DNA of 35,906 nucleotides. Origin: an uncultured Candidatus Saccharibacteria bacterium. GTDB taxonomy: Bacteria > Patescibacteriota > UBA1384 > CAYGGE01. Shown in pieces: positions 7,652 to 35,803 of the stretch (positions within the stretch are counted from its first letter, which is position 1; each line of letters starts with the position of its first letter). The translations under genes and the position numbers were made by a program. The notes under the pieces are model-generated. The model was not told the origin of the DNA. It worked only from the letters and a program-made list of their open reading frames with translations, and did no database searches. The stretch lies in NCBI GenBank assembly GCA_964592905.1, contig CAZQGJ010000001.1, positions 1 to 35,906 on the forward strand, read 5' to 3'.

Positions 7652-8629
7652 TTGCTCGAGGCTAAGCGGTTAGCGATTATTATGCACGAAAAGCCCGATG
7701 CCGATACCATCGGCTCATCGCTGGCTTTAGCTCGCGGGCTCTGGCAACGAGGAGTTAAGTCTCGACTCTATAGCCGAGACCGCTGGCCAGCCCCCTTTAG
7801 ATATCTGATTGAGGACGAGCGGCTGGAGCCTAGATTCGACCCTGACGAGCCGGACACGGTTGTCGTCATTGATTGCGGTGACTTGCGCCGAACCGGCTAT
7901 CCAAATGAGGTAACGCGATTTGCCGAACAGGCTGGACGGCTAATTCATATCGATCACCACGGTGAGAGCGACCTCTATCGGCTGGCTAACTACCGCTATT
8001 ACGATCCCGAGGCGGCAGCCACCGGCGAGATGATTCATCGGCTACTGCTCTGTCTCGAGGTTGAGATAACATCGAATATTGCCAAACCGTTATTTGCCAG
8101 TCTCTATTATGATACCGGCGGCTTTAAGCATGCTAACACCGACAGCCGAACGCTCGAGCTGGCCGGTTCATTATTAAGCGCTGGAGCTAACCTCAAGGAG
8201 TTAGTCCGTCATAGCGAGCTCGATCGCTCCTTAGCCCAACTGCGACTGTGGGGGCGAGCGCTAGAAAATAGCTGGCTCAATGATAAATATGGCCTATTGG
8301 TAACAGTTTTGACTCAAAAGGATTTTGCCGAGCTCGAGGCGGATCCTAGCGAAGCGGCTGGTCTGATTAATTTGATGAACCAAGCCAACGAGGCAAAGGT
8401 CGCCCTGTTACTCTACGAAACCGAGGCGGGGTTGCGCGGTAGCCTCCGCACCGAAAGTCAAAGAATTGACTTAGGCGAGCTCGCCAACTGGCTTGGCGGT
8501 GGGGGATTACGGCGGGCCGCCGGCTTTCAATTACCGGCTAGGCTTGTCAAAGAGGCAGAAAACTGGCATATTGCTCTTAGTTACTCACCTCAAGCCGGGG
8601 TGGCGGAATGGCAGACGCGGCGGACTTAA
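7652..8629 (+). CDS. nrnA: DHH-family phosphoesterase (NrnA-like oligoribonuclease/pAp phosphatase)
   Basis: Motifs HEKPDADTIGSSLAL, VVVIDCGD, IDHHG and the DHHA1 motif GGGGLRRAAGF. The last 36 nt overlap tRNA-Leu(TAA). Confidence 0.85.
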   Translation: MLEAKRLAIIMHEKPDADTIGSSLALARGLWQRGVKSRLYSRDRWPAPFRYLIEDERLEPRFDPDEPDTVVVIDCGDLRRTGYPNEVTRFAEQAGRLIHIDHHGESDLYRLANYRYYDPEAAATGEMIHRLLLCLEVEITSNIAKPLFASLYYDTGGFKHANTDSRTLELAGSLLSAGANLKELVRHSELDRSLAQLRLWGRALENSWLNDKYGLLVTVLTQKDFAELEADPSEAAGLINLMNQANEAKVALLLYETEAGLRGSLRTESQRIDLGELANWLGGGGLRRAAGFQLPARLVKEAENWHIALSYSPQAGVAEWQTRRT

Positions 8630-8678
8630 AATCCGCTAGGCAAAACCTGTGCGGGTTCGAGTCCCGCTCCCGGCACCA
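8594..8678 (+). tRNA. tRNA-Leu(TAA), CCA encoded
   Basis: Acceptor stem GCCGGGG/TCCCGGC. Anticodon arm GCGGA-CTTAAAA-TCCGC. Long variable arm. T-arm GCGGG-TTCGAGT-CCCGC. Confidence 0.9.
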
Positions 8679-8717: not shown

Positions 8718-8993
8718 ATGATTAATCAAGAAAATAAATTACAACGATTTCTTGGCAAGAAAATTACTTTAAAAGATCTCGTTTCATTGACGTTATGGAT
8801 GTATAGCGGTTTGCTAGTAATCGGCATGATTATGTCAAAACTCTTTGATGTGGAGTTTATCGACGAATTTATGAAGTGGCCCTTCAAAGATGTAGTGTTT
8901 TGGTTATTGTTTTCGTTCAAAGTAGTGCCAGACCTTATTAGCTGGTTAGGGTCTATCAACAGAAAAAAATCGAATGGCATAAAGACTCGTTAG
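8718..8993 (+). CDS. small hypothetical membrane protein (two predicted TM helices)
   Basis: The 91-aa ORF follows AAGGTG. Hydrophobic stretches LVSLTLWMYSGLLVIGMIM and VVFWLLFSFKVV. Confidence 0.5.
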   Translation: MINQENKLQRFLGKKITLKDLVSLTLWMYSGLLVIGMIMSKLFDVEFIDEFMKWPFKDVVFWLLFSFKVVPDLISWLGSINRKKSNGIKTR

Positions 8994-9147: not shown

Positions 9148-9220
9148 GGAATTGCTTCCGACCCGAAATGTGGTGGTTACCACCGCAATCTCTTCCAAGA
9201 GATAGGGTCGGGAGTTTTTT
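9148..9220 (+). ncRNA. candidate ~70-nt small RNA or compound terminator folding as a three-way junction with a U6 tail
   Basis: 10-bp outer stem CTTCCGACCC (9155-9164)/GGGTCGGGAG (9205-9214). It encloses hairpins GTGGTGG-TTA-CCACCGC and ATCTCTT-CC-AAGAGAT. TTTTTT follows at 9215-9220. Confidence 0.4.
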
Positions 9221-9519
9221 ATTCAGGAGATACCTCTACTAGGATCTCTTGTTTTTTGATTAGAGCTCTATAGTCATCTGCATATTTCCATTTTTCTTCG
9301 ACGGAACAATTAACCACACCACAAACATAATTGACTGGCTTAGTGACTTATTCCTTTGTGATGAAATACTTGTTTGAGACAAAATCTAATCCAGGATCAC
9401 TAGATCTGTCAATGAAATCTAGCATGCCTTAAAAGGACCATGCAAAGACCGAGGTTTGTACTACACCTAAATATATGGTTTTCCCCCTCCTAAAAGAGTA
9501 AAATGAACACAAGGACGGT

Positions 9520-11901
9520 ATGGCAAACGAAACATTTTCACGAGTTATTATTGATCGAAAATTAAGGGAAGCCGGCTGGGATATTGAAGATTCCAACCAG
9601 GTTATTTTTGAGGATCATGGAATTGCCGGCCGCTCTGATTACATCCTTAAGGATAAACAGGGTCGTCCGCTTGCACTCATCGAGGCTAAGGGACCGGATA
9701 TTGACCCTTATAACGCCAAGCAACAAGCACTCAACTATGCTGAAACACAATATAAGGGAAAGATTAACCATATCTACCTGGCGAATGATCATCTTATTTA
9801 CTTTTGGGATTTTACAACTGGTGGCGATGCTATTCCTGTTCCCCATTTTTTCTCTCAAAATGACCTAAGCCGTAAGCAGCAGGTTAAAACTTTAGCTCAT
9901 ACGGAGCCGCTCAATCAAAAAATGGTTGAAAAGGATTATTTTCACGATGTTGATTCAGATATTATGCTTAGGCCTTATCAGATGGAAGCTTGGCACGCCA
10001 TTGCTGGTGATTATGATAATGGAAAACGAGGCTTTCTTTTGGAAATGGCTACCGGAACCGGTAAAACAGTCCTTGCTTCATTAATAATTTCTAAATTCCT
10101 CCGTACTCATCAAGCACAAACAGTTTTATTCGTGGTAGACCGCATTGAACTCGCTCGTCAAACTAAAGGCACATTTGAACACTTGCTTGGTCACCTCTCT
10201 GCGGTTGGTACTTACTGGGGTGATTCCAAGAAGAATCTGGTTGGAGCGAATGTTGTTATCGCAACTATTCAATCGTTGATCGCTCACGGTCAGGATGTTT
10301 TTACGCCAGGGTATTTTGATTTAGTCATTCACGACGAAGCGCACCGTAGCATCTATTCACCAGAGGCTCGCGGAATTATGGATTATTTCGTAGGTGCCAC
10401 AAAAATTGGTCTGACTGCCACCCCAAAGGATTTCTTAAAAAATCTGGATATGGGACGACTCGGCCTTGATGATCCCCGGGCAGCTGAACTACGAGTACAG
10501 CGTGACACCTACCGCTATTTTGGTTGTGAAAATGGCCAGGCTACATTCCGATACACGCTCCAAGATGGGGTCAAAGAAGGTTTTTTGGTACCGCCAAAGC
10601 TACATAAGATGACTTCCGCTCTAACACAACAAGCGCTCAGCCCAGAGGGTTTGGTTGGTGAAGCTGATTATGAAAATGAAAGTTACAGCGTCAAAGATCT
10701 TGAAAAGAAAGTTTTTGTACCAGAGCGCAATCGACTTATGATGCAGGAATTCCTCGAATATGCCGAGAAATCTCCAGATGGCAATATCGGAAAGACGATT
10801 ATTTTTGCAGTTAATCAAACGCATGCTACAAGTCTTGAGAAAATTCTTAATCAACTAAAACCCGAGTTTGGTGGCCGGTTTGCCATAACAATTACTAGCC
10901 GGGTTCAAGGTGCTCATGATCTAGCACGAGACTTTAAGAAACTTGATAATAACCTACCTCGTGCAGCTGTTTCAGTAGATATGCTAACTACTGGTTACGA
11001 CGCTCCAGAGGTACAAAACATCGTTCTTGCCCGGCCAGTATTTGAACCCACTCTTTACCAACAGATTAAGGGTCGAGGCACCCGCCTCTGTAAAGAAATT
11101 GATAAAAAACAATTTGTAGTTTTTGATTTCTGTGGCGTCTGTGAATACTTTGAAGAGCAGTACGACTGGAAAGCACCTCAAAAGATTACAAAGCCAACCG
11201 ATGAGACAACCCCACCAACGCCAAAAGGGCCTTACGGACCTAGCCCAACTGGTGAAGGTGAGCCACCAGAACCGCCAGCTCCTAAAACTGAAACGTCCAC
11301 TATCTCTCGTTTGGATGTAGTTGGTTCACGCGATCAAATTATCTATGGGCCCGATGGTGACAAAGTCGATCGTGAAATGTATCAGGATGAGTGGAGCCGA
11401 CAGGTCAAAACCTTTGTCGATGCTCACCCAGAGGCTATAGAGATGGCTCAAGACGACACAAAGACTGAGGAGCTGATTGATCTCCTTAATACTGAACTAT
11501 TAAACCGACCTGATTTTTACTTTAATGAGGGTAACCTCATCCAATCACACAGAGTTATTGCATCTGTTCGAGACTTTTTTCTGTCCGCAATCGGTAAAGG
11601 ATCGTTACCAAAACGCAATGAGCAGCTAGGCGAATGGCGTAACGGAATGCTTGATAAGTATGGTCAGGCATCATCAGGTGGTTCACAGAAGCGCTACCTA
11701 ATGACCCGATTAATGGTTGATGAAATAATGAAGAACGACGAGCTTCGTATTGGCCTTCAACAAAAACCAAGTTTGAATTTCTTGCTTCATGAGCCATTTA
11801 ATCTTGACTTTAGACCAGAAGAATGGCTATATACATACGGCAAAGACACCCTTTTCGAGATGGTGCACGATGTTAAGAATAGCCAATTACTGAAAGTCTA
11901 A
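9520..11901 (+). CDS. hsdR: Type I restriction enzyme R subunit (EcoAI/EcoEI-like short HsdR)
   Basis: N-terminal nuclease motif RVIIDRKLREAGW...GRSDYIL...LALIEAKG (PD-(D/E)xK). SF2 helicase motifs MATGTGKT, IHDEAHRS, LTATP and QQIKGRGTR. About 790 aa, as in type IB R subunits. Confidence 0.9.
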   Translation: MANETFSRVIIDRKLREAGWDIEDSNQVIFEDHGIAGRSDYILKDKQGRPLALIEAKGPDIDPYNAKQQALNYAETQYKGKINHIYLANDHLIYFWDFTTGGDAIPVPHFFSQNDLSRKQQVKTLAHTEPLNQKMVEKDYFHDVDSDIMLRPYQMEAWHAIAGDYDNGKRGFLLEMATGTGKTVLASLIISKFLRTHQAQTVLFVVDRIELARQTKGTFEHLLGHLSAVGTYWGDSKKNLVGANVVIATIQSLIAHGQDVFTPGYFDLVIHDEAHRSIYSPEARGIMDYFVGATKIGLTATPKDFLKNLDMGRLGLDDPRAAELRVQRDTYRYFGCENGQATFRYTLQDGVKEGFLVPPKLHKMTSALTQQALSPEGLVGEADYENESYSVKDLEKKVFVPERNRLMMQEFLEYAEKSPDGNIGKTIIFAVNQTHATSLEKILNQLKPEFGGRFAITITSRVQGAHDLARDFKKLDNNLPRAAVSVDMLTTGYDAPEVQNIVLARPVFEPTLYQQIKGRGTRLCKEIDKKQFVVFDFCGVCEYFEEQYDWKAPQKITKPTDETTPPTPKGPYGPSPTGEGEPPEPPAPKTETSTISRLDVVGSRDQIIYGPDGDKVDREMYQDEWSRQVKTFVDAHPEAIEMAQDDTKTEELIDLLNTELLNRPDFYFNEGNLIQSHRVIASVRDFFLSAIGKGSLPKRNEQLGEWRNGMLDKYGQASSGGSQKRYLMTRLMVDEIMKNDELRIGLQQKPSLNFLLHEPFNLDFRPEEWLYTYGKDTLFEMVHDVKNSQLLKV

Positions 11902-11904
11902 TTT

Positions 11905-14409
11905 ATGTCACATACAGATTTCAAAAATCGAGTCGACGGTTTGATGAATATTTTATGGAGTGGTGGGGTTGCTAACCATTCCACAATCATTGAGCAGATA
12001 AACTACTTAGTCTTCTTGCGTTCTCTTAGTAAAAAAGACGACCATGCCATGCGTATCGATCCCGAAGCAGAGCGGGTTTTTCAAGGTGAATTATCCCAGT
12101 ACCACTGGGATAATTTGCTTGTATTAAATGCCGAGGTTCTTTTTAGCACCCTTGAAGATATTTATCGTCGATTGCCCGAGCTTACGACTGACAAGACTAT
12201 TCAACTTCTTTACCGTGACGCTCATGTGAAGGTTTTCGACAAACCAACCTTACGGCGGCTTGTCCACGAAATTGAGCAGCTAATGAGCGATCTTGAAAAA
12301 GAAGCTACGACCGGCCGTAATGACATCTTCGGTGATATGTACGAATATCTCCTCAGTAAGCTAGCTCAGGCCGGTACTCTCGGATCATTCCGAACACCAC
12401 GTCATATTATTAATTTTATTGTTGATGTCATCGATCCCGATAAAGGCGAAACTATTCTTGACCCAGCTTGCGGCACAGCTGGCTTCTTAGTAGCAGCGTT
12501 GGAGCACCTCAAAGAAAAATACTCGTCAGAGGAATTCAAGAAGGAGAACAAGCATCCGCTCGATTTACTGAGCCCCGACGAGCGCAAATTCCTTTTCCAA
12601 CACACATTCACCGGATTCGATAGTGATTTTGATATGTTCAAGTTCGGCCTCATGAACCTCTACCTTCACCAGCTTGAGCATCCAAACATTAAGCGCATTA
12701 ATACACTCGTTGATACCGCCGGTGATCGTACTAAATGGGATATCATTCTTGCTAATCCTCCATTTGCAGGTGCCGTGGATCAATCAAGTATTAGCGAAGA
12801 TCTACAAATGGGAACGCGCGCTACCGAAATCCTGTTCCTGCGGTATATGATTGATCACTTATCACCTACTGGAAGAACCGGCGTAATCGTACCGGAAGGT
12901 ATTATTTTTTCTAATACCAATGCACATAAAAAAATTCGACAATTACTTATCGAAACAGCTGGCTTATGGGCAGTAGTTTCGCTTCCTGCCGGCGTATTTA
13001 ATCCATATTCTGGCGTGAAAACTAGTATTCTGTTTTTTGATAAATCAATTGCAAGAAATATTGAGAGTATTCTTTTTGCAAAAGTAAGTCATGACGGTTT
13101 TGATTTGGGGGCAAGTAAAAGGCTTGTTGATAAGGACGATCTACCGAATGCATTAAACGCCTTGCTAAAATATCACAGTGGATTAAGGAATAAGGCTTCA
13201 AACGCTGCTGAAGCAATTTATATCTTGGGTGCAGAAATTGCACACTTAATCCCAAAGCACAAAATTTCTGAAACTGGCGACTATAATCTCTCTGGAGATC
13301 ACTATCTACTCTCCTCTGAATACTCTGATGCTAAATGGCCGATGGTCTCAATAGAAGAATTATGCGATCTGGGAAGAGGGCGCGTAATAAACAAACAAGA
13401 TATTGCGAAAAATCCCGGGGCTTTCCCAGTTTACTCTTCACAAACAACCGATGACGGTATCTTTGGATATTTAGGTTCCTATGATTTTGACGGTGAATAT
13501 GTAACTTGGACTACAGATGGAGCGAATGCCGGAACAGTTTTTTACAGAACTGGAAAATTCAACTGCACCAATGTATGCGGGACATTAAAAGCCAAAACGA
13601 AAAAAATAAATATGAGATTTTTGGCACAAGCTTTAAATAGGATCGCATATAAACATGTTATTCATGCTGGAAACCCAAAATTAATGAATAACGTAATGGC
13701 AAAAATTACAGTCCCTCTTCCCCCACTTGAAATTCAAGATCAGATCGTAAAAGAATTGCGTGGTTATCAAGAGATTATTGACGGAGCGACACAGATCGTC
13801 GCTAACTGGAAATGCAAAATCGAAATCGATACAACATGGGAAAGAGTAAAGCTTAAAGATGTTTGCAATATTAACCCCAAGAAAATTGAGATCAAAAATA
13901 TCAATCCGGAAACAGAAGTTTCTTTTGTGCCAATGGCTGATTTAAATCAAAATAATGCTAATTTTGTGATCAAGCAGACAAAAAAGCTATCTGAAGTTAT
14001 AGGAAGTTACACCTATTTTACAGAAAACGATGTTTTACTTGCCCGTGTAACACCATGTTTTGAAAATGGTAAAGCGGGTATCGCAAGAAAACTAAAGAAT
14101 AAAATTGGTTTTGGATCGAGTGAATATATCGTGATTAGACCAAGTGAGAAAATCTTACCGGAAATCATCTATTGTTATATTTCGGAGCAAAGATTTAACG
14201 CTGCTGGAAAAATAAAAATGACTGGCACTGGTGGCCTACAGCGAGTACCAGTTGATTTTGTACAAAACTGGGAAATATCCCTACCTCCACTCGAAGTTCA
14301 AAGGCAGATTGTGGATCAAATAGACATCGAACGCACTTTAGTTGATGGAAATAAAAAATTAATTGAGATCTACAAAAGAAAAATTATCGATGTTTTAAGC
14401 GCAATATAA
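11905..14409 (+). CDS. fused Type I methyltransferase-specificity protein (HsdM-HsdS, two TRDs)
   Basis: N6-adenine MTase motif I LDPACGTAGFL and motif IV NPPFAG. These are followed by two ~150-aa variable regions, each ending in an HsdS conserved helix (PLPPLEIQDQIV..., SLPPLEVQRQIV...). The ATG lies 3 nt after the hsdR stop. Confidence 0.9.
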   Translation: MSHTDFKNRVDGLMNILWSGGVANHSTIIEQINYLVFLRSLSKKDDHAMRIDPEAERVFQGELSQYHWDNLLVLNAEVLFSTLEDIYRRLPELTTDKTIQLLYRDAHVKVFDKPTLRRLVHEIEQLMSDLEKEATTGRNDIFGDMYEYLLSKLAQAGTLGSFRTPRHIINFIVDVIDPDKGETILDPACGTAGFLVAALEHLKEKYSSEEFKKENKHPLDLLSPDERKFLFQHTFTGFDSDFDMFKFGLMNLYLHQLEHPNIKRINTLVDTAGDRTKWDIILANPPFAGAVDQSSISEDLQMGTRATEILFLRYMIDHLSPTGRTGVIVPEGIIFSNTNAHKKIRQLLIETAGLWAVVSLPAGVFNPYSGVKTSILFFDKSIARNIESILFAKVSHDGFDLGASKRLVDKDDLPNALNALLKYHSGLRNKASNAAEAIYILGAEIAHLIPKHKISETGDYNLSGDHYLLSSEYSDAKWPMVSIEELCDLGRGRVINKQDIAKNPGAFPVYSSQTTDDGIFGYLGSYDFDGEYVTWTTDGANAGTVFYRTGKFNCTNVCGTLKAKTKKINMRFLAQALNRIAYKHVIHAGNPKLMNNVMAKITVPLPPLEIQDQIVKELRGYQEIIDGATQIVANWKCKIEIDTTWERVKLKDVCNINPKKIEIKNINPETEVSFVPMADLNQNNANFVIKQTKKLSEVIGSYTYFTENDVLLARVTPCFENGKAGIARKLKNKIGFGSSEYIVIRPSEKILPEIIYCYISEQRFNAAGKIKMTGTGGLQRVPVDFVQNWEISLPPLEVQRQIVDQIDIERTLVDGNKKLIEIYKRKIIDVLSAI

Positions 14410-14428: not shown

Positions 14429-15100
14429 ATGGCTGATACTAATAACCTGAATAAACCTACACTTGAAGAAAAGCTATCACTCAAAGCAAGCCAGCTTCGA
14501 AGAGCCTTACAGGACAAAAACTATCCTCAGTCTGCCAACGCACATTTTGGAGTTTGGATAGCACTATTAAGTAAGGAAGATTATCAAGAAGCCTGCCCTC
14601 ATGCAGCGTTATCGGCGCGAAGGCTGATGGAATGTGCAGCATTAGAGATCACGGGACTACAACCTGAGAAAAACCCTGGTGACATAGCGAATGAAGTAAA
14701 AAGATTAAAAGAAAGTTTAAGCAAGGCAAACCCATCGGAGGTTGATGGCATGTGGATTGTGCCATTGTCATTTTCTAAAGATTTACAAAAGTTTTTCGAC
14801 ACATTCGATAAGCGCCAGACAAGAAATCAACGTATGCAGGAGATGTTGATGAAAGCTGACCCTAGCGGTATCCCGATTCCAGAAGATGTGAGAGGGTTAA
14901 TGGCTTCGGATTGGGTTAGCCTTTTTGGATATTTTAGCAATACATTGCACTTTTCCTATCCTCAGGAAATTAAACGCGAGGAATTAATCCAAAAAATAGA
15001 GAAGTTAGAACAACTATTATTAGAGTATATCCTCTACGCGGGTGCGGTTGAAAACCTCGATGAGATTGATAGCCTCATCGAAGAAACGGAAGTGATATGA
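14429..15100 (+). CDS. hypothetical protein, apparently all-helical with an acidic C-terminus; no assignable motif
   Basis: 223-aa ORF with GGAG 5 nt upstream. It starts 19 nt after hsdMS and is AT-rich like its neighbours. Confidence 0.75.
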   Translation: MADTNNLNKPTLEEKLSLKASQLRRALQDKNYPQSANAHFGVWIALLSKEDYQEACPHAALSARRLMECAALEITGLQPEKNPGDIANEVKRLKESLSKANPSEVDGMWIVPLSFSKDLQKFFDTFDKRQTRNQRMQEMLMKADPSGIPIPEDVRGLMASDWVSLFGYFSNTLHFSYPQEIKREELIQKIEKLEQLLLEYILYAGAVENLDEIDSLIEETEVI

Positions 15101-17640
15101 CAAATAAACCAGTTGATATAACAAAGCTAAAAAATCTTATTAAAGGTGGATCCAGTTACGCTTACTTTTTCAACAACATTACAAGCTCTGATTGGCTTAT
15201 GCCCCTAATAAATGAGGGTTTCTTCACCAAACCACCGGCCGCAGAAAAAGATGGTCAGTGGATCAGCTTTCCAGTCTGGCCAGAGATTAACTACTTACTA
15301 AAAGTAGCGAGCATATCGCCTGACGAGACTACGATAGCATTGGACAAAATTTCCGATACAGACAATCAATATGTTTTAGACATGTTCGTAAAAGTATTAC
15401 TTGAGATTGGTGCAAAACGAGCGGTACGATTTACAGATAGAGTTGTTGCGTTTCTTGCAATACCCTTTCAGTTTCGTATCCATGAGGAATCGACTAAGTT
15501 AGTCTGTCTTTTGGCAAAAGAGGGGTACACTGATGAGGCAATAAAAATCATAGATGCATTGCTTGAGGTGATGCCTGATCCCCGTGCTGAAAATGCAGGA
15601 ACAGATGAATATCAAAAGTACTTAATTGAGCCTCAGATTAAGTATCGAGACTATGACTACCAAGAAATCATCGAAAAAGTCACGCCAGGCCTCGTCGCTG
15701 CAGACCCAGCAGGTGCTATAAAGCTTTTCTCTAAACTTTTGAACAATGCTGTCATTTATAAATCTGTTCGCTATGAACACGACTCTAGCTCTGACGGACA
15801 GGACTACTCAAATATATGGCGTCCTGCTATTGGGAGCCAAAAGAGGGATAATGGGAATCAGCCGTTTGATGGTTTGGTGTCGGCCCTTCGAGATGGTCTA
15901 ATCGGGTTATTAGCCTCTAATATATCTGACAAAGAAAAAATAACTGTTCTGAAAAATGTTGTCGGTCTAAAGTTTCTTATATTTAGCCGAATTGTTGAGC
16001 ACGTTTTGCAAAGCTTAAAAGATCAGGCTCCCTACAAAGAACTTTACGACGAAATTCATAAAAACTTTGATAAGTTTCTAATTGAGAAAGCATTCGTTAT
16101 TGAAAGCGGAGAGGTCATCCCAGAGCCAGGCATTACGATTGAGGAACTAAATCAACTTGATGACGCCGCCTTAATTCAAAAACTTACAAGCCATAAGCCA
16201 CCCGATCGTTTATTTGGAAGAGACGCAATCGATAATTTAATTTCGACATTGATTAAAAACGATCCGAAGCGATTTATACAAATTGCTCCAGAGTTTCTCG
16301 CAGCTAGCCACCAACTGGCTAATGGCTTTATCTATTCTCTAAACGACATCATTGGAAACCTAGATCAACAGACAGTCGATGTTCTACTGGCAGATCTAAG
16401 CAACTGGCTTAAGACAACCAAGGGAGCAGATGATGATACATATTACTCTTGGGCAAAATCAGCCCTTGCTCGGTTGGTAGATAAGCTATCAGATCAGAAG
16501 CGTAAAAATAGTGAGTATGGTTCTGTGGCTTCTGCGGAGTCATTGCTCGATATTATCCTCAGACTTGCCCGCGATAGTGATCCAACCCCCGAACGAGAAG
16601 AGAGAGATGATAGTGATAATTGGGATCCAGTATCTGTAGCGATCAACAGCACTAGGGGTGAGGCGCTCCATGCATTAGCTGGCTTCGTTGGTTGGGCGCA
16701 CAGAAACAAAGCAAATCAAAAATATCTACAACAAGCGTATGACGAGCTTGACTGGCACTTAAACACTAACAATGATCCATCGTTCGCTATACGTTCAGTC
16801 TTCGGTCAGCATCTGCCACTACTCGGATATGTAAATTCCCAATGGGTTAAAGATAATATCGGCAGTATTTTTTCCGATGATACATACGGCGATGCTGCTT
16901 GGGATGCTTACGTCAGCTTTACTCAGCCGTATAAAGACCTATTGCCACTAACAGAACCCTTTATTAAAAAACGATTATCTAATTTAAGGGTCTATCCTGA
17001 GGGCAAAAATCGTAGGGCTGACATGGGACAATCACAATTTGTCCATCATTTAATGATTTATTATTGGAACGGTTATCTGGATTTGGTTGATGGAGGCGTA
17101 ATTAAAACATTTTTTGAGACTGCAGACGTCAAATATCGAATTGAAGCATTACACTTTATCGGCTTTGCCTTAAAAGAGGACAAGTCAGAAACGAGAGAAG
17201 AGGTATTGGATCGATTGAAAATACTTTGGGACTATCGACTTACCGATTTAGTGAGTAGCGATAAAGAAAATCAGAAGGAATTAGAAGAATTTGGTATATG
17301 GTTTGCATCAAATGCATTTTCGAATGACTGGGCAATTGCAAACCTGCAAAAGGTTCTAGTTATTACACAAAACGCAAATCCTGATTTTATGGTTCTAGAG
17401 AAGCTTTGTACCATGGTAGAAAAATATCCCGTTGAGGCAATTATATGCCTAAGGGAAATGATCGCTGGTGCACGAGAGCGATGGTCAATTAGCAGCTGGA
17501 AAGAATATGCGTCAATAATAATTCGTATTTCTTTTGAGTCTGGAAACTCTGAGGTTAGCAGAATAGCTAAAGCTCAGGTCGATATACTGATTAGCAAAGG
17601 CCACCATAATTTTCGTAATCTCGTGAAGAAAATCAAGTAA
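15097..17640 (+). CDS. large hypothetical protein (847 aa), helical-repeat-like, no catalytic motif recognised
   Basis: ATGA start/stop overlap with the upstream ORF. I saw no Walker A, DEAD/DEAH, PD-(D/E)xK, HNH or SAM motif. The N-terminus is aromatic-rich: SSDWLMPLINEGFF...WISFPVWPEINYL. Confidence 0.85.
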   Translation: MTNKPVDITKLKNLIKGGSSYAYFFNNITSSDWLMPLINEGFFTKPPAAEKDGQWISFPVWPEINYLLKVASISPDETTIALDKISDTDNQYVLDMFVKVLLEIGAKRAVRFTDRVVAFLAIPFQFRIHEESTKLVCLLAKEGYTDEAIKIIDALLEVMPDPRAENAGTDEYQKYLIEPQIKYRDYDYQEIIEKVTPGLVAADPAGAIKLFSKLLNNAVIYKSVRYEHDSSSDGQDYSNIWRPAIGSQKRDNGNQPFDGLVSALRDGLIGLLASNISDKEKITVLKNVVGLKFLIFSRIVEHVLQSLKDQAPYKELYDEIHKNFDKFLIEKAFVIESGEVIPEPGITIEELNQLDDAALIQKLTSHKPPDRLFGRDAIDNLISTLIKNDPKRFIQIAPEFLAASHQLANGFIYSLNDIIGNLDQQTVDVLLADLSNWLKTTKGADDDTYYSWAKSALARLVDKLSDQKRKNSEYGSVASAESLLDIILRLARDSDPTPEREERDDSDNWDPVSVAINSTRGEALHALAGFVGWAHRNKANQKYLQQAYDELDWHLNTNNDPSFAIRSVFGQHLPLLGYVNSQWVKDNIGSIFSDDTYGDAAWDAYVSFTQPYKDLLPLTEPFIKKRLSNLRVYPEGKNRRADMGQSQFVHHLMIYYWNGYLDLVDGGVIKTFFETADVKYRIEALHFIGFALKEDKSETREEVLDRLKILWDYRLTDLVSSDKENQKELEEFGIWFASNAFSNDWAIANLQKVLVITQNANPDFMVLEKLCTMVEKYPVEAIICLREMIAGARERWSISSWKEYASIIIRISFESGNSEVSRIAKAQVDILISKGHHNFRNLVKKIK

Positions 17641-17697: not shown

Positions 17698-18450
17698 ATG
17701 ACATACGGACGGCAAAGAAATATTTTCGATCCAAAGTCGGAAATCCCATTCAAATTATCGAGATCAAGATTAGAGAACTTTACCAAATGTCCTCGGTGTT
17801 TTTATATTGACCGCCGACTTGGGATCGGCCAACCGTCTAGCCCTCCATTTAGTTTGAATAATGCAGTCGATGAATTACTCAAAAAAGAGTTTGATATTCT
17901 TCGTGAAAAAGGTGAAGCACATGCCTTAATGACAGAGTACGGACTCGATGCCGTACCTTTCAAAGACGACCGAATGGACGAATGGCGTGACTCACTCCGG
18001 CGTGGCATCCAATATCTTCACGAACCAACCAACCTGCTAATTTGCGGTGGAGTTGATGATGTGTGGGCTAGGCCTGACGGCGAGCTAATCATTGTTGACT
18101 ACAAAGCCACATCAAAAAATGGTGAGGTCGAATGGGACGATAACGCCCAGCATCATAAGCAGTACAAGCGCCAAATGGAAATTTACCAGTGGTTATTCCG
18201 CAGGAACGGATTCAAGGTCTCAGATACTGGATATTTTGTATATGTGAACGGCCAAACAGAGCGCGACGGATTTCATGGCAAGCTCGAGTTTACTGCCAAA
18301 TTATTACCTCACACCGGCGACGACTCATGGGTTGAACAGGCTATTATTGACGCCCGCAAATGCTTAATGAGTAAGACGATGCCAGAGTTTAGCCCGCTTT
18401 GCGAATTCTGCCAGTATAACCAAGCTATATCAGTGTTAAAAATTTATTAA
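17698..18450 (+). CDS. PD-(D/E)xK nuclease, Cas4/RecB-like, with Cys clusters (probable Fe-S)
   Basis: N-terminal CPRC. Motifs GGVDDV, IIVDYKAT (D-x-K) and QMEIYQWL (QxxxY). C-terminal Cys residues ...C(x14)CEFC. Confidence 0.85.
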   Translation: MTYGRQRNIFDPKSEIPFKLSRSRLENFTKCPRCFYIDRRLGIGQPSSPPFSLNNAVDELLKKEFDILREKGEAHALMTEYGLDAVPFKDDRMDEWRDSLRRGIQYLHEPTNLLICGGVDDVWARPDGELIIVDYKATSKNGEVEWDDNAQHHKQYKRQMEIYQWLFRRNGFKVSDTGYFVYVNGQTERDGFHGKLEFTAKLLPHTGDDSWVEQAIIDARKCLMSKTMPEFSPLCEFCQYNQAISVLKIY

Positions 18451-18534
18451 CTATCTTAAATTTTATTCTGGCTTGCAATCTAAAAAATATGAAATTCACT
18501 CGTAGATACATATTACTAAGTCGATAGGACACCG

Positions 18535-19236
18535 ATGAAGCTCTATAAATATAGACCACTTACGACCTGTGAGGATTTCAGTAGGGCACAAGAGATATTG
18601 AATGGTGGTAAATTTTGGTGCACTAGCTTTTGCAATCTCAACGACCCTATGGAGGGGGTCTATTCATCCAATGATTTCAAGTCAGATCAAATTAAATCGC
18701 TGTACAAAAGTAAGGAAAGCTTCAGTATCTGTTCATTTTCCGAAGCATTTTCAGATCCAATTTTGTGGGCACACTATGCCGGCGGTTTTCGTGGCATAGT
18801 TATTGAAACTACAGTCAACCGAGAAAGTATTCAGCCAGCAGTAGTGAAAAAGATTAACTACGTTGAGACTATATTAGAAATTCAAAAAAAGGTTATCGAT
18901 AGCAAGGTCCAAGATGGCGAAGAAATTGACAAGGTAGCGATATCAATTCTGACTACCAAGCTAGCGCATTGGAAACACGAGAAGGAACGTCGCTATCTGA
19001 CAAGAGAAGGAAGTGGCTATCACGAGATCGGTAAAATAACCGGACTGTTTACTTGGTCAAACGACTCCGTCCAGAATTATGCAGATATAGTTCAGAGTTG
19101 CTCAGATCTGAGTGATTATCAAACCTACAGAGATTGTCTTATCACAATAGCAAACAATCAAAAGATAAGGCAGTATGTCGTTGGAATGAATAATAAAGGC
19201 AAAATAAAACGAATTAAACACGATAATCTGTGCTAA
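18535..19236 (+). CDS. DUF2971-family protein
   Basis: The N-terminus KLYKYRPL...AQEILNGGKFWCTSFCNLNDPMEG matches the characteristic DUF2971 opening (lYkY...il.n..l.fs....lNDP.E). Confidence 0.75.
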   Translation: MKLYKYRPLTTCEDFSRAQEILNGGKFWCTSFCNLNDPMEGVYSSNDFKSDQIKSLYKSKESFSICSFSEAFSDPILWAHYAGGFRGIVIETTVNRESIQPAVVKKINYVETILEIQKKVIDSKVQDGEEIDKVAISILTTKLAHWKHEKERRYLTREGSGYHEIGKITGLFTWSNDSVQNYADIVQSCSDLSDYQTYRDCLITIANNQKIRQYVVGMNNKGKIKRIKHDNLC

Positions 19237-19245
19237 ACTATACCT

Positions 19246-19932
19246 ATGATCTGGAATAAACTTAATGCCCGAGCTATCCGAGCTTTGTTTAGCTTGGTCT
19301 TTATCTTGTCAGCTGGCATTATCATCTTCAGCAACAATATCAATTACGCTAGTTTGCTCTATCCGCCGATTCCCGATAGTCACTACCAAATGATCACCGA
19401 TGCGGTGGATCACTGTCAGGTACCGCGCGAGATGCGCGGCTTTATCGCCTCGGTCGCCCGGGCCGAGAGCGGCTTTCGACCGGGGGCGGCCTCGGGGGCA
19501 GGGGCTGTCGGGGTAATGCAGCTCTTACGCGCCACTGGCTACGGCGTGGCGGTTAACTACGGCATCAGCGGCCTCAACGCCAGTACCTTTACGGACCCGG
19601 CAATTAGTTATAAGATGGGCACTTGCTATATCCATTACATTATGGGCAAATATAGCGGTGGTGCCGACAAGGCTCAATGGAATAATCCTGAGTATCTTAA
19701 GGCCGTCATGATCGGCTACAACGCCGGACCGGCCAAAGGTCAAAGCTATCTCAACGGTGGCAGTAGCTACCCTAGCTCATCGCTTGCTTACGCTAATAAG
19801 ATCATCGGGTCGACTGCCGCCTATACCACCGACTTCGTCCAGTGGGAATTGCGTCAAGCCAGCGGCGAAGCAGCCACTCCAGATAGCGTCCGGGCTACCA
19901 TCTGGCGCTACCTCATCGGCAGTCAACCATAA
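19246..19932 (+). CDS. membrane-anchored lytic transglycosylase (SLT domain)
   Basis: N-terminal TM segment. Catalytic ARAESGFRP...GAVGVMQL and GYNAGPAKG motifs. GC content returns to backbone level here. Confidence 0.85.
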   Translation: MIWNKLNARAIRALFSLVFILSAGIIIFSNNINYASLLYPPIPDSHYQMITDAVDHCQVPREMRGFIASVARAESGFRPGAASGAGAVGVMQLLRATGYGVAVNYGISGLNASTFTDPAISYKMGTCYIHYIMGKYSGGADKAQWNNPEYLKAVMIGYNAGPAKGQSYLNGGSSYPSSSLAYANKIIGSTAAYTTDFVQWELRQASGEAATPDSVRATIWRYLIGSQP

Positions 19933-19945
19933 TCGAATTCACATT

Positions 19946-28858: not shown

Positions 28859-28934
28859 GGGCCATTAGCTTAGCTGGTAGAGCGCATCCATGGCATGGAT
28901 GAGGTCAGCGGTTCGAATCCGCTATGGTCCACCA
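28859..28934 (+). tRNA. tRNA-Ala(GGC), CCA encoded
   Basis: Acceptor stem GGGCCAT/ATGGTCC with the G3:U70 alanine identity pair. Anticodon arm CATCC-ATGGCAT-GGATG. T-arm AGCGG-TTCGAAT-CCGCT. Confidence 0.9.
28911..28934 (+). repeat. att-like direct repeat, copy 1 (3' end of tRNA-Ala)
   Basis: GTTCGAATCCGCTATGGTCCACCA is identical to 29112-29135. Confidence 0.85.
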
Positions 28935-28970
28935 AAAAGTCATCACTTCGCGTGGTGATTTTTTGTTTTT
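28935..28970 (+). terminator. intrinsic terminator after tRNA-Ala
   Basis: TCATCAC-TTCGC-GTGGTGA hairpin (28940-28958) followed by TTTTTTGTTTTT. Confidence 0.6.
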
Positions 28971-29111
28971 GTTTGTAATGCAAAAATAGGATTCGAACAC
29001 GAAGGGGGTCGGGGAAACAGTTGTTTCCCCGCTCGGGGTGACAGCGAATTCGAGCTAGCGAGAATGAGCGCCAGAGGGCGGAAGCCCTATGGAGAGAAGC
29101 GAAGCGACGAC

Positions 29112-29135
29112 GTTCGAATCCGCTATGGTCCACCA
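29112..29135 (+). repeat. att-like direct repeat, copy 2 (perfect 24-nt copy of the tRNA-Ala 3' end), overlapping the recombinase stop codon
   Basis: This is an exact 24-nt match to 28911-28934. The last four recombinase codons (NGGP) and the TAG stop lie inside it. Confidence 0.85.
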
Positions 29136-30622
29136 TTTCTCACTTTGAGATCACCATCGAGACGACGGAATGGTTCCGTCAGACTAAATTCAACCTTTTT
29201 ACCGGCTAATGAGCAGTTAGATACCACGTTTGTGAGGAACTCTCTCTGGAGAGCCGGTATCGAACTTAACTCAGATAACAATTCTCCGGCCTCACTCAAA
29301 AGTCGGTACAAATGATCGGTCGTTAAATTAGGTAATAGTTCAGTGCTTTCCACGGCTAGCTTCTCTAGTTGGCTTTTTTTGAGTGTAAGTTTGTTTTCCG
29401 CGTCCGTCAATACTAACTTCATGACCTCTTCTGAAATCTCACCCCGTCGGCGCATCTGGACCGTATCTTTAATTTCAATTTGTAAGTTTTCCACAGCCTT
29501 TTCCATTTCCTCCCGATCTCTGGCCGCTGTTCGAAGGTTATTTGAACGGTTAGCATTCATTTGCTCTAAAGATTTAGCAATTTCCCACTTGTAAACTCGA
29601 AACTTGGTAAAGCCTTTCTTAAACTGCTTAAAGACTAATGTTTGCGAGATGCTATTGCCTGGGCACGTTTCCGGTCCCTTGCCTTTGGTGCAGCGTAAAT
29701 AGACGCCGTAAAGTTCTTCACGCTTCCTGACCCAAGAGGGGGAGATAGAACAATCACAATAAGCGCAGCGAATAACACCAGTTAAACCAAAGACCTTTTT
29801 CTCAAGCCGACTTTTGCGTTTATTGACGTTCTGGCACTTATACCAGGTCTCCTCATCAACAATTGGCTCGTAGTTGTGTCGCTTCAAGGTGCCATCCGGC
29901 ATCGTGAAATAGCCCATGTAGAAAGGATTGCGGAAAGCATGATCTAAGACACTTTGCGTAATTGGCCGAGCGAGCTTTGAATTAGTCGTTAGCCCTCGAT
30001 CTCGCATGATTCTAGCGCATTCTCGTAAGGTATATTGCCCCGTGGCACGCAGTTTAAAGGCCTCAAGCATCTGCGGACCCCGAACGGGGTCTTTCAGAAT
30101 ATCTTTCTTACCGCCAATGGTAATATGCATATAGCCAACACCAGCTTTTGACCAATAGCGGCCTTGCTCGCGCATTAGGTTCTGGTAGCGTTTTTGGTTA
30201 TCCCTGGAAGCGGCAGAGTAGTAATACCCATCAGAAAGCCCTGAGAGTAATTGGCGTTCAATCGCCGCTGGAGAATCTTTAGAGACAATCAGCCAGTCAG
30301 AAAGGAAGTGAAGCTCAAGTTTGCCGGCTTTGACCATGTAGACAATGTCGAGGACATCCTCATTGAACCCTCGGCCAAGGCGATCAATCTTGTCAGCACA
30401 AAGGGCGACGCATTTACCGCGAGTGACTCGTTTTAATTCACTGACGAGTTCATGAAATTTCTTTCTCGTGCGCTTAAAGGCCGATTCCTCAATGGGGACT
30501 TCCCGCAGTACGGTAAAGCCCTTTTTCTGGCAATAGTCACGCAAAGGGTTGAGCTGGGCATCGTTTTCCTGCTCTTTGGTGGAGACTCTTGCTAAAATAT
30601 AGGCGTCAGTTGGTTTATCCAT
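29123..30622 (-). CDS. large serine recombinase/integrase
   Basis: Resolvase catalytic domain YILARVSTKEQ (catalytic Ser) and DRLGR. Recombinase domain. Zinc-ribbon Cys cluster CAYCDC...CTKGKGPETC. C-terminal coiled-coil-like region. RBS GGGGAG. Confidence 0.9.
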   Translation of the reverse strand: MDKPTDAYILARVSTKEQENDAQLNPLRDYCQKKGFTVLREVPIEESAFKRTRKKFHELVSELKRVTRGKCVALCADKIDRLGRGFNEDVLDIVYMVKAGKLELHFLSDWLIVSKDSPAAIERQLLSGLSDGYYYSAASRDNQKRYQNLMREQGRYWSKAGVGYMHITIGGKKDILKDPVRGPQMLEAFKLRATGQYTLRECARIMRDRGLTTNSKLARPITQSVLDHAFRNPFYMGYFTMPDGTLKRHNYEPIVDEETWYKCQNVNKRKSRLEKKVFGLTGVIRCAYCDCSISPSWVRKREELYGVYLRCTKGKGPETCPGNSISQTLVFKQFKKGFTKFRVYKWEIAKSLEQMNANRSNNLRTAARDREEMEKAVENLQIEIKDTVQMRRRGEISEEVMKLVLTDAENKLTLKKSQLEKLAVESTELLPNLTTDHLYRLLSEAGELLSELSSIPALQREFLTNVVSNCSLAGKKVEFSLTEPFRRLDGDLKVRNGGP

Positions 30623-30775
30623 TTACTCCCCTCGGTTTGAGACCGAACATAAGCTGTAAGTCCAGTATACCGTCTCTTACCGCTTCGGCAAGGTAATGTC
30701 AAGTCCTTACTAATAAAAAAGGAGACGGACCGTTACCAGTCTATCTCCCTATTGCAACTGCGCTGTGTTGTGGCT

Positions 30776-31105
30776 CTACGATGCGCTTCGGCGACCAGAC
30801 TCAAGAACTTCCTTCATCTCCGCTTGAGCTTTCTCACTGAGTCCTACAGTGCTCCATGTGTCGGTTGACCGAAGACCAAGTTCCGAAAGCTCGCGGCGTA
30901 ACGCATCGCCTTTGGACAATGGGAATTCTTGGCCACCAATCTCGACCTTTGCATCTCGGTTCTTGTAGTGACTAAGGAGGCCATCGACGCCACCTTCGTT
31001 CACTAAGCGGACGAACTCCTGTATGTTCATATCGCGCATTACTTCACCTTGGTTGCCCTGTGAGCCCTGCTCTATCGACATTTGAACTCCTTTCGAGTTG
31101 GCCAT
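30776..31105 (-). CDS. hypothetical protein (109 aa)
   Basis: The ORF is on the same strand as the recombinase and upstream of it. An imperfect hairpin plus T-tract follows its 3' end on the minus strand (about 30715-30750). No motif recognised. Confidence 0.55.
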   Translation of the reverse strand: MANSKGVQMSIEQGSQGNQGEVMRDMNIQEFVRLVNEGGVDGLLSHYKNRDAKVEIGGQEFPLSKGDALRRELSELGLRSTDTWSTVGLSEKAQAEMKEVLESGRRSAS

Positions 31106-31368
31106 TATGTCTAATAATATACCACAAGAGTAGCAGGTTACAATAAGGCATTAAGAGTTAGGCGATAAGTGTCCTGTCAACCCCTTGCATTGGGGATTAT
31201 TTGGTGGTAGGATCAGGGTACAACAGAATAAAAGAGACAGTAATTTAAACGGTTAATTCCGTAGCATATCAAGTCGCAAACAGCGGCTTTTTTTGTGCAT
31301 TCACGCTAGTTTCGGAAACCGTAGGTTGCCCCTCGACCTACGGCCCCCAAAGCTAAGGTGGAGGGACC

Positions 31369-31692
31369 ATGGTCCGCAAATACCGTAATCGTTCCTGTGA
31401 ATTTCAAGGTGTAAAGTACGACTCTCTCAAAGAGGGGAATTACGCTTTGCATTTGCATTATGAGCAAATGGCCAGAGAGATTCAACGCTGGGAACCCAAA
31501 CCCAAGTATCGACTAGTCGTTAACGGTGCTCCAATCTGTACCATAGTTCCAGATTTTCTCGTAGTGACGCGAGACGGCAAAACCGAAGTTCATGAAATTA
31601 AGAGCAAACCAACTATGACGCCAGTTTGGCGACTCAAGAAAAAACTCTTTGAGGTGCTCTATCCAGACATAATCTACCGGGTGATTGTATGA
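31369..31692 (+). CDS. DUF1064-like small PD-(D/E)xK-fold phage protein
   Basis: RBS AAGGTGGAGG. FQGVKYDSLKEGNYA...PDFLVV...EVHEIKS...WRLKKKLF resembles the phage DUF1064 pattern with a D...E-x-K motif. Confidence 0.55.
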   Translation: MVRKYRNRSCEFQGVKYDSLKEGNYALHLHYEQMAREIQRWEPKPKYRLVVNGAPICTIVPDFLVVTRDGKTEVHEIKSKPTMTPVWRLKKKLFEVLYPDIIYRVIV

Positions 31693-32954
31693 GTGAGACT
31701 AGAAACGAAATGAGGAAAGTAAGCGAGCTCATCTTTGCCGAATACAATCCTCGGCAAATTAATAAACATGACTTTCACAAACTGGTCCAATCGATTGAGG
31801 AATTCGGCTTTGTTGAGCCGGTCGTAATCAATACAGACAACACCATCATTGGCGGCCACATGCGAGTCAGAGCCGCCCAAGAACTCAAACTGACTGAGAT
31901 TCCGGTTATCGTCGTTGACCTACCCAAAGCCAAAGAGAAAGCCCTTAATTTAGCCTTAAACCGTATCCACGGTGAATGGGACGAGCAGAAACTAGCTGAG
32001 ATCCTCTTTGAGCTTGAAGACTTACCAGAGCTGCAGCTAACTGGCTTTACTGACTCTGAAATATCCAAGACTCTCGACACGGTTCGGGCCTCAAAAGAGG
32101 ATTAATTCGATGCGGTTAAGGAATACGAAAATATTACTGACCCAGTAGCTAAGGAAGGTGATCTCTACCAACTGGGAGAGCACCGACTGCTTTGTGGCGA
32201 TGCCACTAATCCAGATAATTGGAATAGGCTCATGGCTAACGACGAAGCTCAGCTCATCTTTACCGATCCGCCCTACAATGTCGACTACCACTCACCAGGC
32301 GGTATGAGCTACAACTCCACCAAATTCGGTGGCTCAGGAGGCCCAATCTTTAACGACAATAAGTCAGATGAAGACTGCATTGCCTTTTATACTGAGGTTC
32401 TGAAAAATCTCTACGAGCAAACCAGAGATGATGCAGCGATTTACTGGTGGTTTGCTAATAAGAATAACCACTTGAATCGTTATGCCTTTGATAATACCGG
32501 CTGGCATATGTCTCAAATCGTCATTTGGCTCAAAAACTCCTTTGTCTTCTCGCCTGGTCAAGACTACCACCGGGTGTATGAACCCTGCATGCTGGGCTGG
32601 AAAAAAGGCAATAGCCACTACATCAACCGTAAATATACCAACCTCTCCGATGTCTTTAACCTTAACTACGCTGAATTTGAGGAAATGATTGATGTTTGGT
32701 ACCAACGACGGGATGCAACAGCGACCTATATCCATCCAACCCAAAAGCCGGTCCGACTCGCAGAACGGGCGTTAAAGAAACACAGCAAGATTGGCGACAT
32801 TGTAATTGACGCCTTTGGTGGCTCAGTCTCGACCTTAATTGCATGCGAAACTATGAAACGCCAAGCAAGATTGATGGAACTCGATCCGAAATACGTCGAT
32901 GTGATTATCAAGCGCTGGGAGCAACTAACTGGCGATAAGGCAGTGAAATTATGA
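31689..32954 (+). pseudogene. ParB-like nuclease domain fused to an N4/N6 DNA methyltransferase, interrupted by one in-frame TAA (32103-32105)
   Basis: The ParB N-domain (NPRQI...IIGGHMRVRAA) and the MTase ORF are in the same frame. Codons 32106-32231 have no stop and encode the conserved MTase N-terminus GDLYQLGEHRLLCGDATNPDNW, which lies upstream of the annotated ATG at 32232. Motifs TDPPYN and HPTQKP are present. Confidence 0.75.
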
Positions 32955-33121
32955 AGTATTCGAGCGAAAAAACTGATGAAATTTGTAAATACCTCGAAAC
33001 TGGCATGAGCCGTGAGGATTCTTGGACTTTAGCAGATATAAACAAAGACACTTTTTATGATTGGATGAAGAAAAAATCCGACTTTTCCGACTCTATAAAG
33101 GACCTCCTCCCCGGACGTTAG
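32951..33121 (+). CDS. small HTH-like protein (56 aa) resembling N-terminal DNA-binding domains of small terminase/transposase-type proteins
   Basis: ATGA overlap with the MTase stop. The sequence is MKYSSEKTDEICKYLETGMSREDSWTLADINKDTFYDWMKKKSDF. The stop lies inside the terminator hairpin. The ORF is below the track's length cutoff. Confidence 0.5.
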   Translation: MKYSSEKTDEICKYLETGMSREDSWTLADINKDTFYDWMKKKSDFSDSIKDLLPGR

Positions 33122-33145
33122 TCCGGGGAGGAGGTCCTTTGTTTG
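33100..33145 (+). terminator. strong intrinsic terminator (17-bp perfect stem)
   Basis: GGACCTCCTCCCCGGAC-GTTA-GTCCGGGGAGGAGGTCC followed by TTTGTTTG. An A-tract upstream suggests it works in both directions. Confidence 0.85.
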
Positions 33146-33212
33146 TAATATTAAGAGAACACCACCATCGAAACAGCACCGTTAAACGGTTGTTTTTTGT
33201 TTCTGTCGCTGG

Positions 33213-34844: not shown

Positions 34845-35081
34845 GAACACATTAGCATCTAGCTAACAGTGCAGTGCGTCGCATGGTTACCTTTATAGTC
34901 CATTCTGAATTTGAACCCTGAATGAGTTCTTTTGCGTTACAGATGGATTGTCATTCTTAATGAAAAGTGCTATTATCGGTTATTCTCTTTACTGTGCGGC
35001 CATCCGTAAAGGTTCGCTCAGAGAGAGACGTTCGCCGACGTATCGGCCAAGTCGGGAAAAGCCGATACAGAGGTCAGGGAA

Positions 35082-35696: not shown

Positions 35697-35803
35697 CCGT
35701 TAGCCAAGAATGGTGAAACGGAGAGGGCACATGACAGAATATCGTCGTGTGACCCTCACCCAAGAGTTTATTTATAAAAATTGATTCTTGTGGTGAGTGC
35801 TTA

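Follow-up and report, generated by a model that had tools for sequence, protein, structure and literature searches.

A divergent, split gene pair with a Dsr1/Avs7-type sensor, probably an anti-phage module, in a Candidatus Saccharibacteria genome

Dsr1 (defence-associated sirtuin 1), reportedly described by Garb and co-workers in 2022, is the named defence family matched by the second of two overlapping genes, here called A and B, in a stretch of DNA from an uncultured Candidatus Saccharibacteria bacterium, a member of the candidate phyla radiation (CPR). This stretch of 35,906 nucleotides (nt), positions 1 to 35,906 of contig CAZQGJ010000001.1 (GenBank assembly GCA_964592905.1, forward strand), is referred to as the window. 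According to the available text of Lee et al., published in bioRxiv in January 2026 (PMC12803255) and in Nature in July 2026 (PMC13581612), Avs7, a STAND protein, has a sensor homologous to that of Dsr1, and 9,097 proteins share this sensor with diverse N-terminal effectors, among them non-STAND proteins with exchanged effectors as well as split proteins. The effectors named in the accessible part of the preprint are NADases, nucleases, kinases, domains of unknown function and a 'HEPN-like RNase' in a Streptomyces protein (PMC12803255), which belongs to Streptomyces sp. NBC_00271 (PMC12803255; PMC13581612). In cryo-electron microscopy, the sensor was described as a bilobed, sharply bent TPR/alpha-solenoid that envelops an HK97-fold protein (PMC12803255; PMC13581612). 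The same text of the preprint reports that the major capsid protein triggers both SeAvs7 and EcDsr1, and that disruption of the N-terminal effector abolished defence by both (PMC12803255).

In this study, the A–B pair was analysed by profile searches, structure prediction and comparison of related loci. The pair is a divergent, split and minimised member of the sensor class that carries neither a SIR2 nor a STAND domain, and it is not Dsr1 proper because no SIR2 domain is present. With a probability of roughly 0.6, A and B together constitute an anti-phage protein of the Dsr1/Avs7-sensor class that is split into two genes. These are as follows.

14429–15100, plus strand: gene A, 223 amino acids (aa), an all-helical domain and divergent family member, taken from the list of open reading frames (ORFs) and its ribosome-binding site
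15097–17640, plus strand: gene B, 847 aa, a Dsr1/Avs7-type alpha-solenoid sensor without an enzymatic domain

By homology with EcDsr1 and SeAvs7, B would act as a two-lobed alpha-solenoid sensor for a conserved structural protein of the phage; the precedent for its trigger is the HK97-fold major capsid protein. A would be made by translational coupling through the ATGA overlap between the two genes and would associate with the strongly conserved N-terminal lobe of B, as fused relatives imply. It would represent the separate-gene form of an N-terminal domain and serve as the output or effector module that is switched on by binding of the sensor to its target. Because A sits where Dsr1 carries its SIR2 NADase, this output role is the most likely one, and the best guess for its activity is a metal-independent RNase of HEPN-like type or some other toxic enzyme of helical fold.

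As in Dsr1, the output domain is placed on the N-terminal side of the sensor, the B family is homologous to the whole non-SIR2 region, and the architecture is that of a single module without a STAND nucleoside triphosphatase (NTPase). Unlike Dsr1, the pair has no SIR2/NADase in A or B, so NAD+ depletion is not expected; an unrelated helical domain, here in a separate gene, occupies the slot, and B is ~120 aa shorter in the inter-lobe region. With the superfamily, as far as the available text of Lee et al. describes it, the pair shares the sensor homology group, modular N-terminal effectors, split genes and a wide horizontal distribution, and the putative effector domain stands at the sensor N-terminus or in an adjacent gene, as in all 42 A–B loci considered below. 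The window copy differs from it in coming from a CPR genome, in being minimised and in its degenerate effector motif. Avs7 has a homologous TPR/solenoid sensor; however, A and B contain no NTPase domain or Walker motifs, and the ATP-dependent tetramerisation and EF-Tu scaffolding of Avs7 therefore cannot be assumed here.

The sensor encoded by gene B

Residues 345–781 of B (16129–17439), within its C-terminal lobe, match positions 735–1165 of the 1227-position PADLOC model of Dsr1 (PDLC04166) with an E value of 7e-27, and the same region of the model is matched by two B relatives (P0001 and P0002). Typical members of the B family match the model from ~290 to ~1220 with E values of 1e-32 to 1e-60, that is, over its entire non-SIR2 part. 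These profile matches indicate homology between B and the Dsr1 sensor. The original prediction, which was made from the letters of the window, had called both ORFs unassignable and the pair a candidate undescribed module; the confident match of B to a named defence family, an outcome that the prediction itself had listed as speaking against it, overturns these two descriptions. No match was found for B in Pfam, NCBIfam or the PDB sequences, nor for typical members of its family in Pfam. The SIR2 and SIR2_2 models of Pfam and positions 1–290 of the Dsr1 model were matched by neither A nor B, and Pfam and PADLOC gave no match to P-loop, STAND or Walker motifs in either protein.

A word-indexed search with B returned only six relatives, the alignment of which seeded an exhaustive HMMER search. 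The family found in this way comprises 8,005 representative clusters at E<=1e-3, of which 3,933 remain at E<=1e-30, and its best 150 members are all full-length matches with E<1e-240. B aligns end to end with relatives of ~960 aa (E 4e-79 against the 972-aa protein of locus L008). The most conserved motif of the family lies in the N-terminal lobe, directly behind the A domain in fused relatives.

15097–16080, plus strand: N-terminal lobe of B, residues 1–328, with the motif YFF..W..PL..GFF..PP...FP.WPE..YL

The AlphaFold2 model of B, built from an 81-sequence alignment, is an all-alpha solenoid with a mean predicted local distance difference test score (pLDDT) of 87.7 and a predicted template modelling score of 0.75. 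The pLDDT is high up to residue 328 and falls below 50 at residues 329–341, a linker that parts the protein into two blocks. The nearest PDB folds found by Foldseek were importins, transportins and CAND1 (E ~1e-4, template modelling (TM) score only 0.2–0.3); the copy of the PDB used for this comparison contained no Avs7 or Dsr1 structure. As modelled, B is a generic HEAT/TPR-like solenoid, in agreement with its earlier description as a HEAT/ARM-like helical array.

The exchange of effectors on this sensor was reproduced among the relatives of B. Haloarchaeal plasmid proteins annotated as ATP-binding or AAA ATPase have a B-like C-terminus, including a 1,493-aa 'ATP-binding protein' (L054). At locus L004 (135–3633), a 170-aa SIR2_2-like ORF, truncated by an in-frame stop near the start of the contig, overlaps a B-family gene (P0006) among HEPN, AAA_16, PLDc_2, MZB and helicase genes; in this defence island, the locus represents a true Dsr1 that is split or in decay. 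A Legionella pneumophila conjugative plasmid (NZ_CP016871, 4013–6382; L053) also encodes a B-like 'hypothetical protein' of 789 aa without ~115 N-terminal residues; IS256/IS3 transposases lie on either side of its gene, and the protein looks like a sensor shortened at its N-terminus.

Gene A and the domain in the effector position

No match was found for A in Pfam, NCBIfam, PADLOC or the PDB sequences. The absence of Pfam and NCBIfam matches for both proteins fits the earlier observation that neither contains a recognisable enzyme motif. The two closest relatives of B, P0001 (92% identical) and P0002 (68%), are preceded by overlapping genes of 223 and 221 aa, which are 87% and 44% identical to A, and more distant relatives have an overlapping upstream gene of ~245 aa (L002, L008, L009 and L056) or 212 aa (L055). 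A profile of the A family retrieved 55 proteins, most of 205–270 aa, several of which continue into the N-terminal motif of the B type; none of the 55 has a Pfam domain. In P0004 and P0062, an A-type sequence is fused to a B-like N-terminus: the hidden Markov model (HMM) of A matches residues 1–230 and the Dsr1 model begins at residue ~220. Since the match to the Dsr1 model starts where the A-type domain ends, the A-type domain occupies the SIR2 slot.

An N-terminal extension is present in 45 of the 150 best B relatives. It is a full A-type domain in four of the 150, three others match its HMM weakly and in part, and ~36 carry a shorter N-domain (~175 aa) that is homologous to the A-type domains (hhalign probability 94%, E 1e-7). 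A 1,090-aa protein from a plasmid of Streptomyces sp. NBC_00212 (WP_331721222.1) has the short A-type N-domain (E 1e-42) joined to a B-type sensor (E 1e-142), and this architecture is probably that of the HEPN-like example of Lee et al.

The invariant residues of the two larger A subfamilies are one His together with Arg-Glu, all in a single helix (SHAVREIRNRLP / HLLREIESALR), and another His (AH[D/R]). The collinear similarity of A to its family comprises N-x-P, G, W162, F169, H174, E194 and LDEID-LIE, and the acidic tail of A holds the family motif LDEIDSLIEE. The landmark residues identified from the family alignment are encoded as follows.

14600–14602, plus strand: H58 of A
14618–14620, plus strand: R64 of A
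14948–14950, plus strand: H174 of A

The AlphaFold2 model of A (pLDDT 68) is helical with a small hairpin and an acidic tail, consistent with the earlier reading of A as a helical protein with such a tail. Below the significance threshold, Foldseek matched this medium-confidence model to Csm6 (5fsh, probability 0.41) and HepT (7bxo_G, 0.63; 6m6u_H, 0.54) with a TM score of ~0.5 on the target; the E values of the Csm6 and HepT matches were 0.45–1.5, and all Foldseek matches had E>=0.19. Comparison of A-family profiles with the PDB sequences gave nothing meaningful, and a lenient Pfam scan of 34 family members gave scattered noise only (NPHP3_N 3/34, TetR_C 3/34), with no HEPN model.

HEPN RNases have a four-helix up-down fold, the last core helix of which opens with the catalytic motif Rx4–6H. 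Like Csm6, HepT and the RloC/PrrC-type anticodon nucleases, A is small and all-helical, stands in an effector position and belongs to a family with a conserved Arg and His; unlike them, the family has no Rx4–6H motif, and its conserved residues are H-x2-R-E, within a single helix, and AH[D/R] at a distance. A canonical HEPN domain was accordingly dropped, as no Arg is conserved 5–7 residues before the His. Two other candidates were also set aside: an HD phosphohydrolase, prompted by the 'AHD' sequence, because the sister subfamily has Arg in place of the Asp, and an effector-associated adaptor domain, because there is no conserved third gene to recruit.

Conservation of the pair, genomic setting and rival explanations

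For the 42-locus set, one genome per GTDB species was scanned with two A-family peptide patterns. At all 42 loci a B-type ORF was either fused to A (17) or directly downstream of or overlapping it (25), which supports a conserved functional pair, in line with the earlier reading. The loci span more than ten phyla, including Cyanobacteriota, Acidobacteriota, Planctomycetota, Chloroflexota, Actinomycetota, Verrucomicrobiota, NC10, Latescibacterota and Bacillota. Frameshifts, stops or an insertion disrupt a few of them: the A gene of L024 is broken by ~1.2 kb, and B is broken by stops or frameshifts in L025, L030, L035 and L044. At L051, a second, partial B-like ORF stands in tandem (9892–12621). 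No relatives were found in IMG/VR viral contigs, GenBank phages, E. coli genomes or the metagenome-contig collection of the Joint Genome Institute (JGI).

In the window, the pair follows a Type I restriction-modification (R-M) operon and precedes a nuclease gene on the same strand.

9520–11901, plus strand: hsdR, 793 aa, with Pfam ResIII/HSDR_N
11905–14409, plus strand: hsdM-hsdS fusion (hsdMS), 834 aa, with Pfam HsdM_N and N6_Mtase followed by two Methylase_S domains
17698–18450, plus strand: Cas4-like PD-(D/E)xK nuclease, with PDDEXK_1 at E 1e-13 and Cas4 models at ~1e-10

According to the ORF list, 3 nt separate hsdR from hsdMS and 19 nt separate hsdMS from A; a GGAG lies 5 nt ahead of the ATG of A, and the start codon of B overlaps the stop of A in the ATGA at 15097–15100. 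A and B are, as judged by the orthologues that stay paired at 92%/87% and 68%/44% aa identity (B/A), both genuine genes. Over its first 155 residues, A shows full identity with a partial protein from the metagenome-assembled genome 'Candidatus Berkelbacteria bacterium Gr01-1014_85'. No terminator-like site was found between hsdMS, A, B and the Cas4-like gene, no promoter or terminator signal rose above chance in the signal scan, and the R-M genes and A–B probably share one operon.

The GC content is 0.37–0.44 across ~9–19 kb and 0.48–0.54 on either side. Housekeeping genes flank this region, with ribonucleotide reductase, S1, a DHH phosphoesterase and tRNA-Leu(UAA) (8594–8678) on the left and alaS, uvrA and rnhB on the right. 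From the low GC content, the flanking genes and the tRNA, it follows that A–B is located within a low-GC island adjoining tRNA-Leu. The original prediction thus proved accurate for the ORF coordinates, common strand, gaps and ATGA overlap, for the Type I R-M operon upstream (recovered with both Pfam and PADLOC) and for the AT-rich composition that the pair shares with the R-M genes.

It had also proposed that the pair might work with the R-M enzyme or the downstream nuclease, which was not supported. The order hsdR-hsdMS-A-B-PDDEXK is conserved on a 48.5-kb contig carrying P0001 (JGI 3300050046), where the hsdM-hsdS fusion is 835 aa long and the block adjoins phage tail genes (SPP1_Dit, tape-measure TMP_3), a C39-like peptidase and NYN and SRAP genes; the block may travel on a phage or prophage of a CPR bacterium. 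At L001, where B is 68% identical, the pair lies behind a small helix-turn-helix gene, and a serine recombinase and a primase are encoded nearby; there is no R-M system or nuclease. Most other related loci also have the pair without R-M. As the pair is found without any R-M system, it is an independent module, and the R-M system lies outside it. Among 128 nearest-neighbour ORFs of 44 loci (the 42 genome loci, L008 and L009), no conserved third gene or recurrent partner family was found. The commonest neighbour families were DEAD/Helicase_C (6), Phage_integrase (4), DruE/DrmA-like MZB (4), ResIII (3), Eco57I/MmeI methylase (3), Fic (3) and HSDR_N (2), with metabolic genes alongside. This setting fits an autonomous, horizontally mobile module that is often but not always found in defence or mobile regions. 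The part of the original prediction that stood is therefore the candidate defence module with B as a sensor or scaffold, for which the island setting speaks; defence is the best reading and A–B a probable defence module, although not an undescribed one.

Several observations weigh against a split anti-phage protein. An HMM built only from mainstream A-family members scores A at 11 bits (E 2.6e-5, against three sequences) and over its C-terminal half only, and hhalign comparison of the CPR clade with the A family gives E 7.8e-4 and a probability of 25%; the membership of A in the family is thus suggested by a weak collinear similarity, combined with very strong positional evidence from synteny. 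The first motif reads PHAALSARRLMEC in the A of the window, in which H58 or R64 is kept, depending on the alignment, and the Glu never. With such a degenerate H-x2-R-E, this copy of A may be inactive, altered or working differently. In neither the PDB nor the viral BFVD library did Foldseek find a match with E<0.1 for the model of A. Moreover, ~120 aa that the relatives of B carry between the two halves are missing from B, and the figures for neighbouring defence genes are plain counts without a background control and not a formal enrichment. The assignment of A as the effector, which is still the most likely one, is drawn from position only.

These observations bear on the alternatives to different extents. 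If B sequestered a capsid or other structural protein directly, with A as a non-enzymatic cap, chaperone or oligomerisation domain, the lack of a recognisable catalytic fold in A, the lost H-x2-R-E signature and the resemblance of B to the cargo-binding karyopherins and CAND1 would all be accommodated. However, the wider A-type family keeps an invariant H, R, E and second H in a pattern resembling an active site, the domain takes the exact slot of the SIR2 NADase, and the accessible text of the preprint reports loss of defence on effector disruption in SeAvs7 and EcDsr1 (PMC12803255); direct sequestration is accordingly considered unlikely. It is quite improbable that the pair instead signals to a linked nuclease, either the Cas4-like enzyme downstream or the Type I R-M system upstream. 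The single strand, short gaps, lack of a terminator-like site and gene order kept in the contig of the 92% relative are compatible with such signalling, and the degenerate motif of A leaves room for an external effector, but that relative carries essentially the same island and is not independent evidence, L001 has the pair with neither R-M nor nuclease, no partner recurs among the neighbours of the 44 loci, and many relatives are single fused proteins.

PrrC and RloC are the familiar precedent for R-M-linked effectors: they combine an ABC/SMC-type ATPase N-domain with a C-terminal anticodon nuclease and are functionally masked by the R-M enzyme. A–B differs from them in having no ATPase domain and in occurring without R-M in L001 and most relatives. 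Spurious profile matches are possible with helical-repeat proteins, and several related loci lie among ordinary metabolic genes, so that a housekeeping or mobile-element maintenance scaffold resembling Dsr1 by chance was also considered. This non-defence role is highly improbable, in view of a Dsr1 match that is long and collinear (E down to 1e-60 over ~900 positions in many members), the patchy distribution across more than ten phyla, the pseudogenised copies, the integrases and other defence genes nearby, and an effector slot that is exchanged with SIR2 and STAND modules.

A more far-reaching version starts from the loss of the putative catalytic signature of A in a pair probably co-transcribed with a Type I R-M system and a Cas4-like nuclease: the capsid-type sensor might have been rewired in this CPR lineage to license a linked nuclease in place of its own effector, with the A-type domain more broadly representing a new enzymatic effector class. 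This is a long shot; if true, the A-type domain, with its invariant H, R, E and H and no HEPN motif, would be a new class of effector on thousands of capsid sensors. Under the preferred explanation, a split anti-phage protein of the Dsr1/Avs7-sensor class, two 'hypothetical' genes are assigned to a defined class of anti-phage pattern-recognition proteins in CPR bacteria, which have few recognised defences, and the sensor is apparently present there on a phage-like contig as well. The value of this locus lies mainly in correct annotation and not in a new principle. The N-terminal domain family is widespread, unannotated and strictly coupled to these sensors, and knowledge of its activity would fill a gap in the list of effectors for this sensor class.

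The island and its flanking genes

The Cas4-like nuclease gene begins 57 nt 3' of B and has no CRISPR context. Another candidate defence gene comes next, and the genes at 17698–19236 are not kept with A–B beyond the closest relative.

18535–19236, plus strand: PDC-S31/DUF2971-like candidate defence gene, 233 aa, with PADLOC PDC-S31 at E 6.6e-37 and a weak DUF2971 match

The left edge of the island is formed by tRNA-Leu(UAA), after which come a 91-aa hydrophobic-looking ORF (8718–8993) and ~520 nt of non-coding sequence. A strong hairpin with a T-run lies in this non-coding stretch, 3' of the ORF, at ~9160–9225 (CCGACCC...GGGTCGG-GAGTTTTTT). No attachment-type direct repeat of the 3' end of tRNA-Leu was found bounding the island, and the Rfam search returned tRNAs only. 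The island is closed by an SLT lytic transglycosylase ORF (19246–19932). Its last 176 nt are shared with the called alaS ORF, which has its GTG at 19757. The true start of alaS is probably near 19940, and at ~590–650 aa the product is short for an alanyl-tRNA synthetase.

A second probable integrated element, at 28859–35700, adjoins tRNA-Ala(GGC). Alongside a 543-aa protein without any Pfam match, it encodes a large serine recombinase (29123–30622, minus strand), a DUF1064 protein, a ParB_N protein and an N6/N4 DNA methylase.

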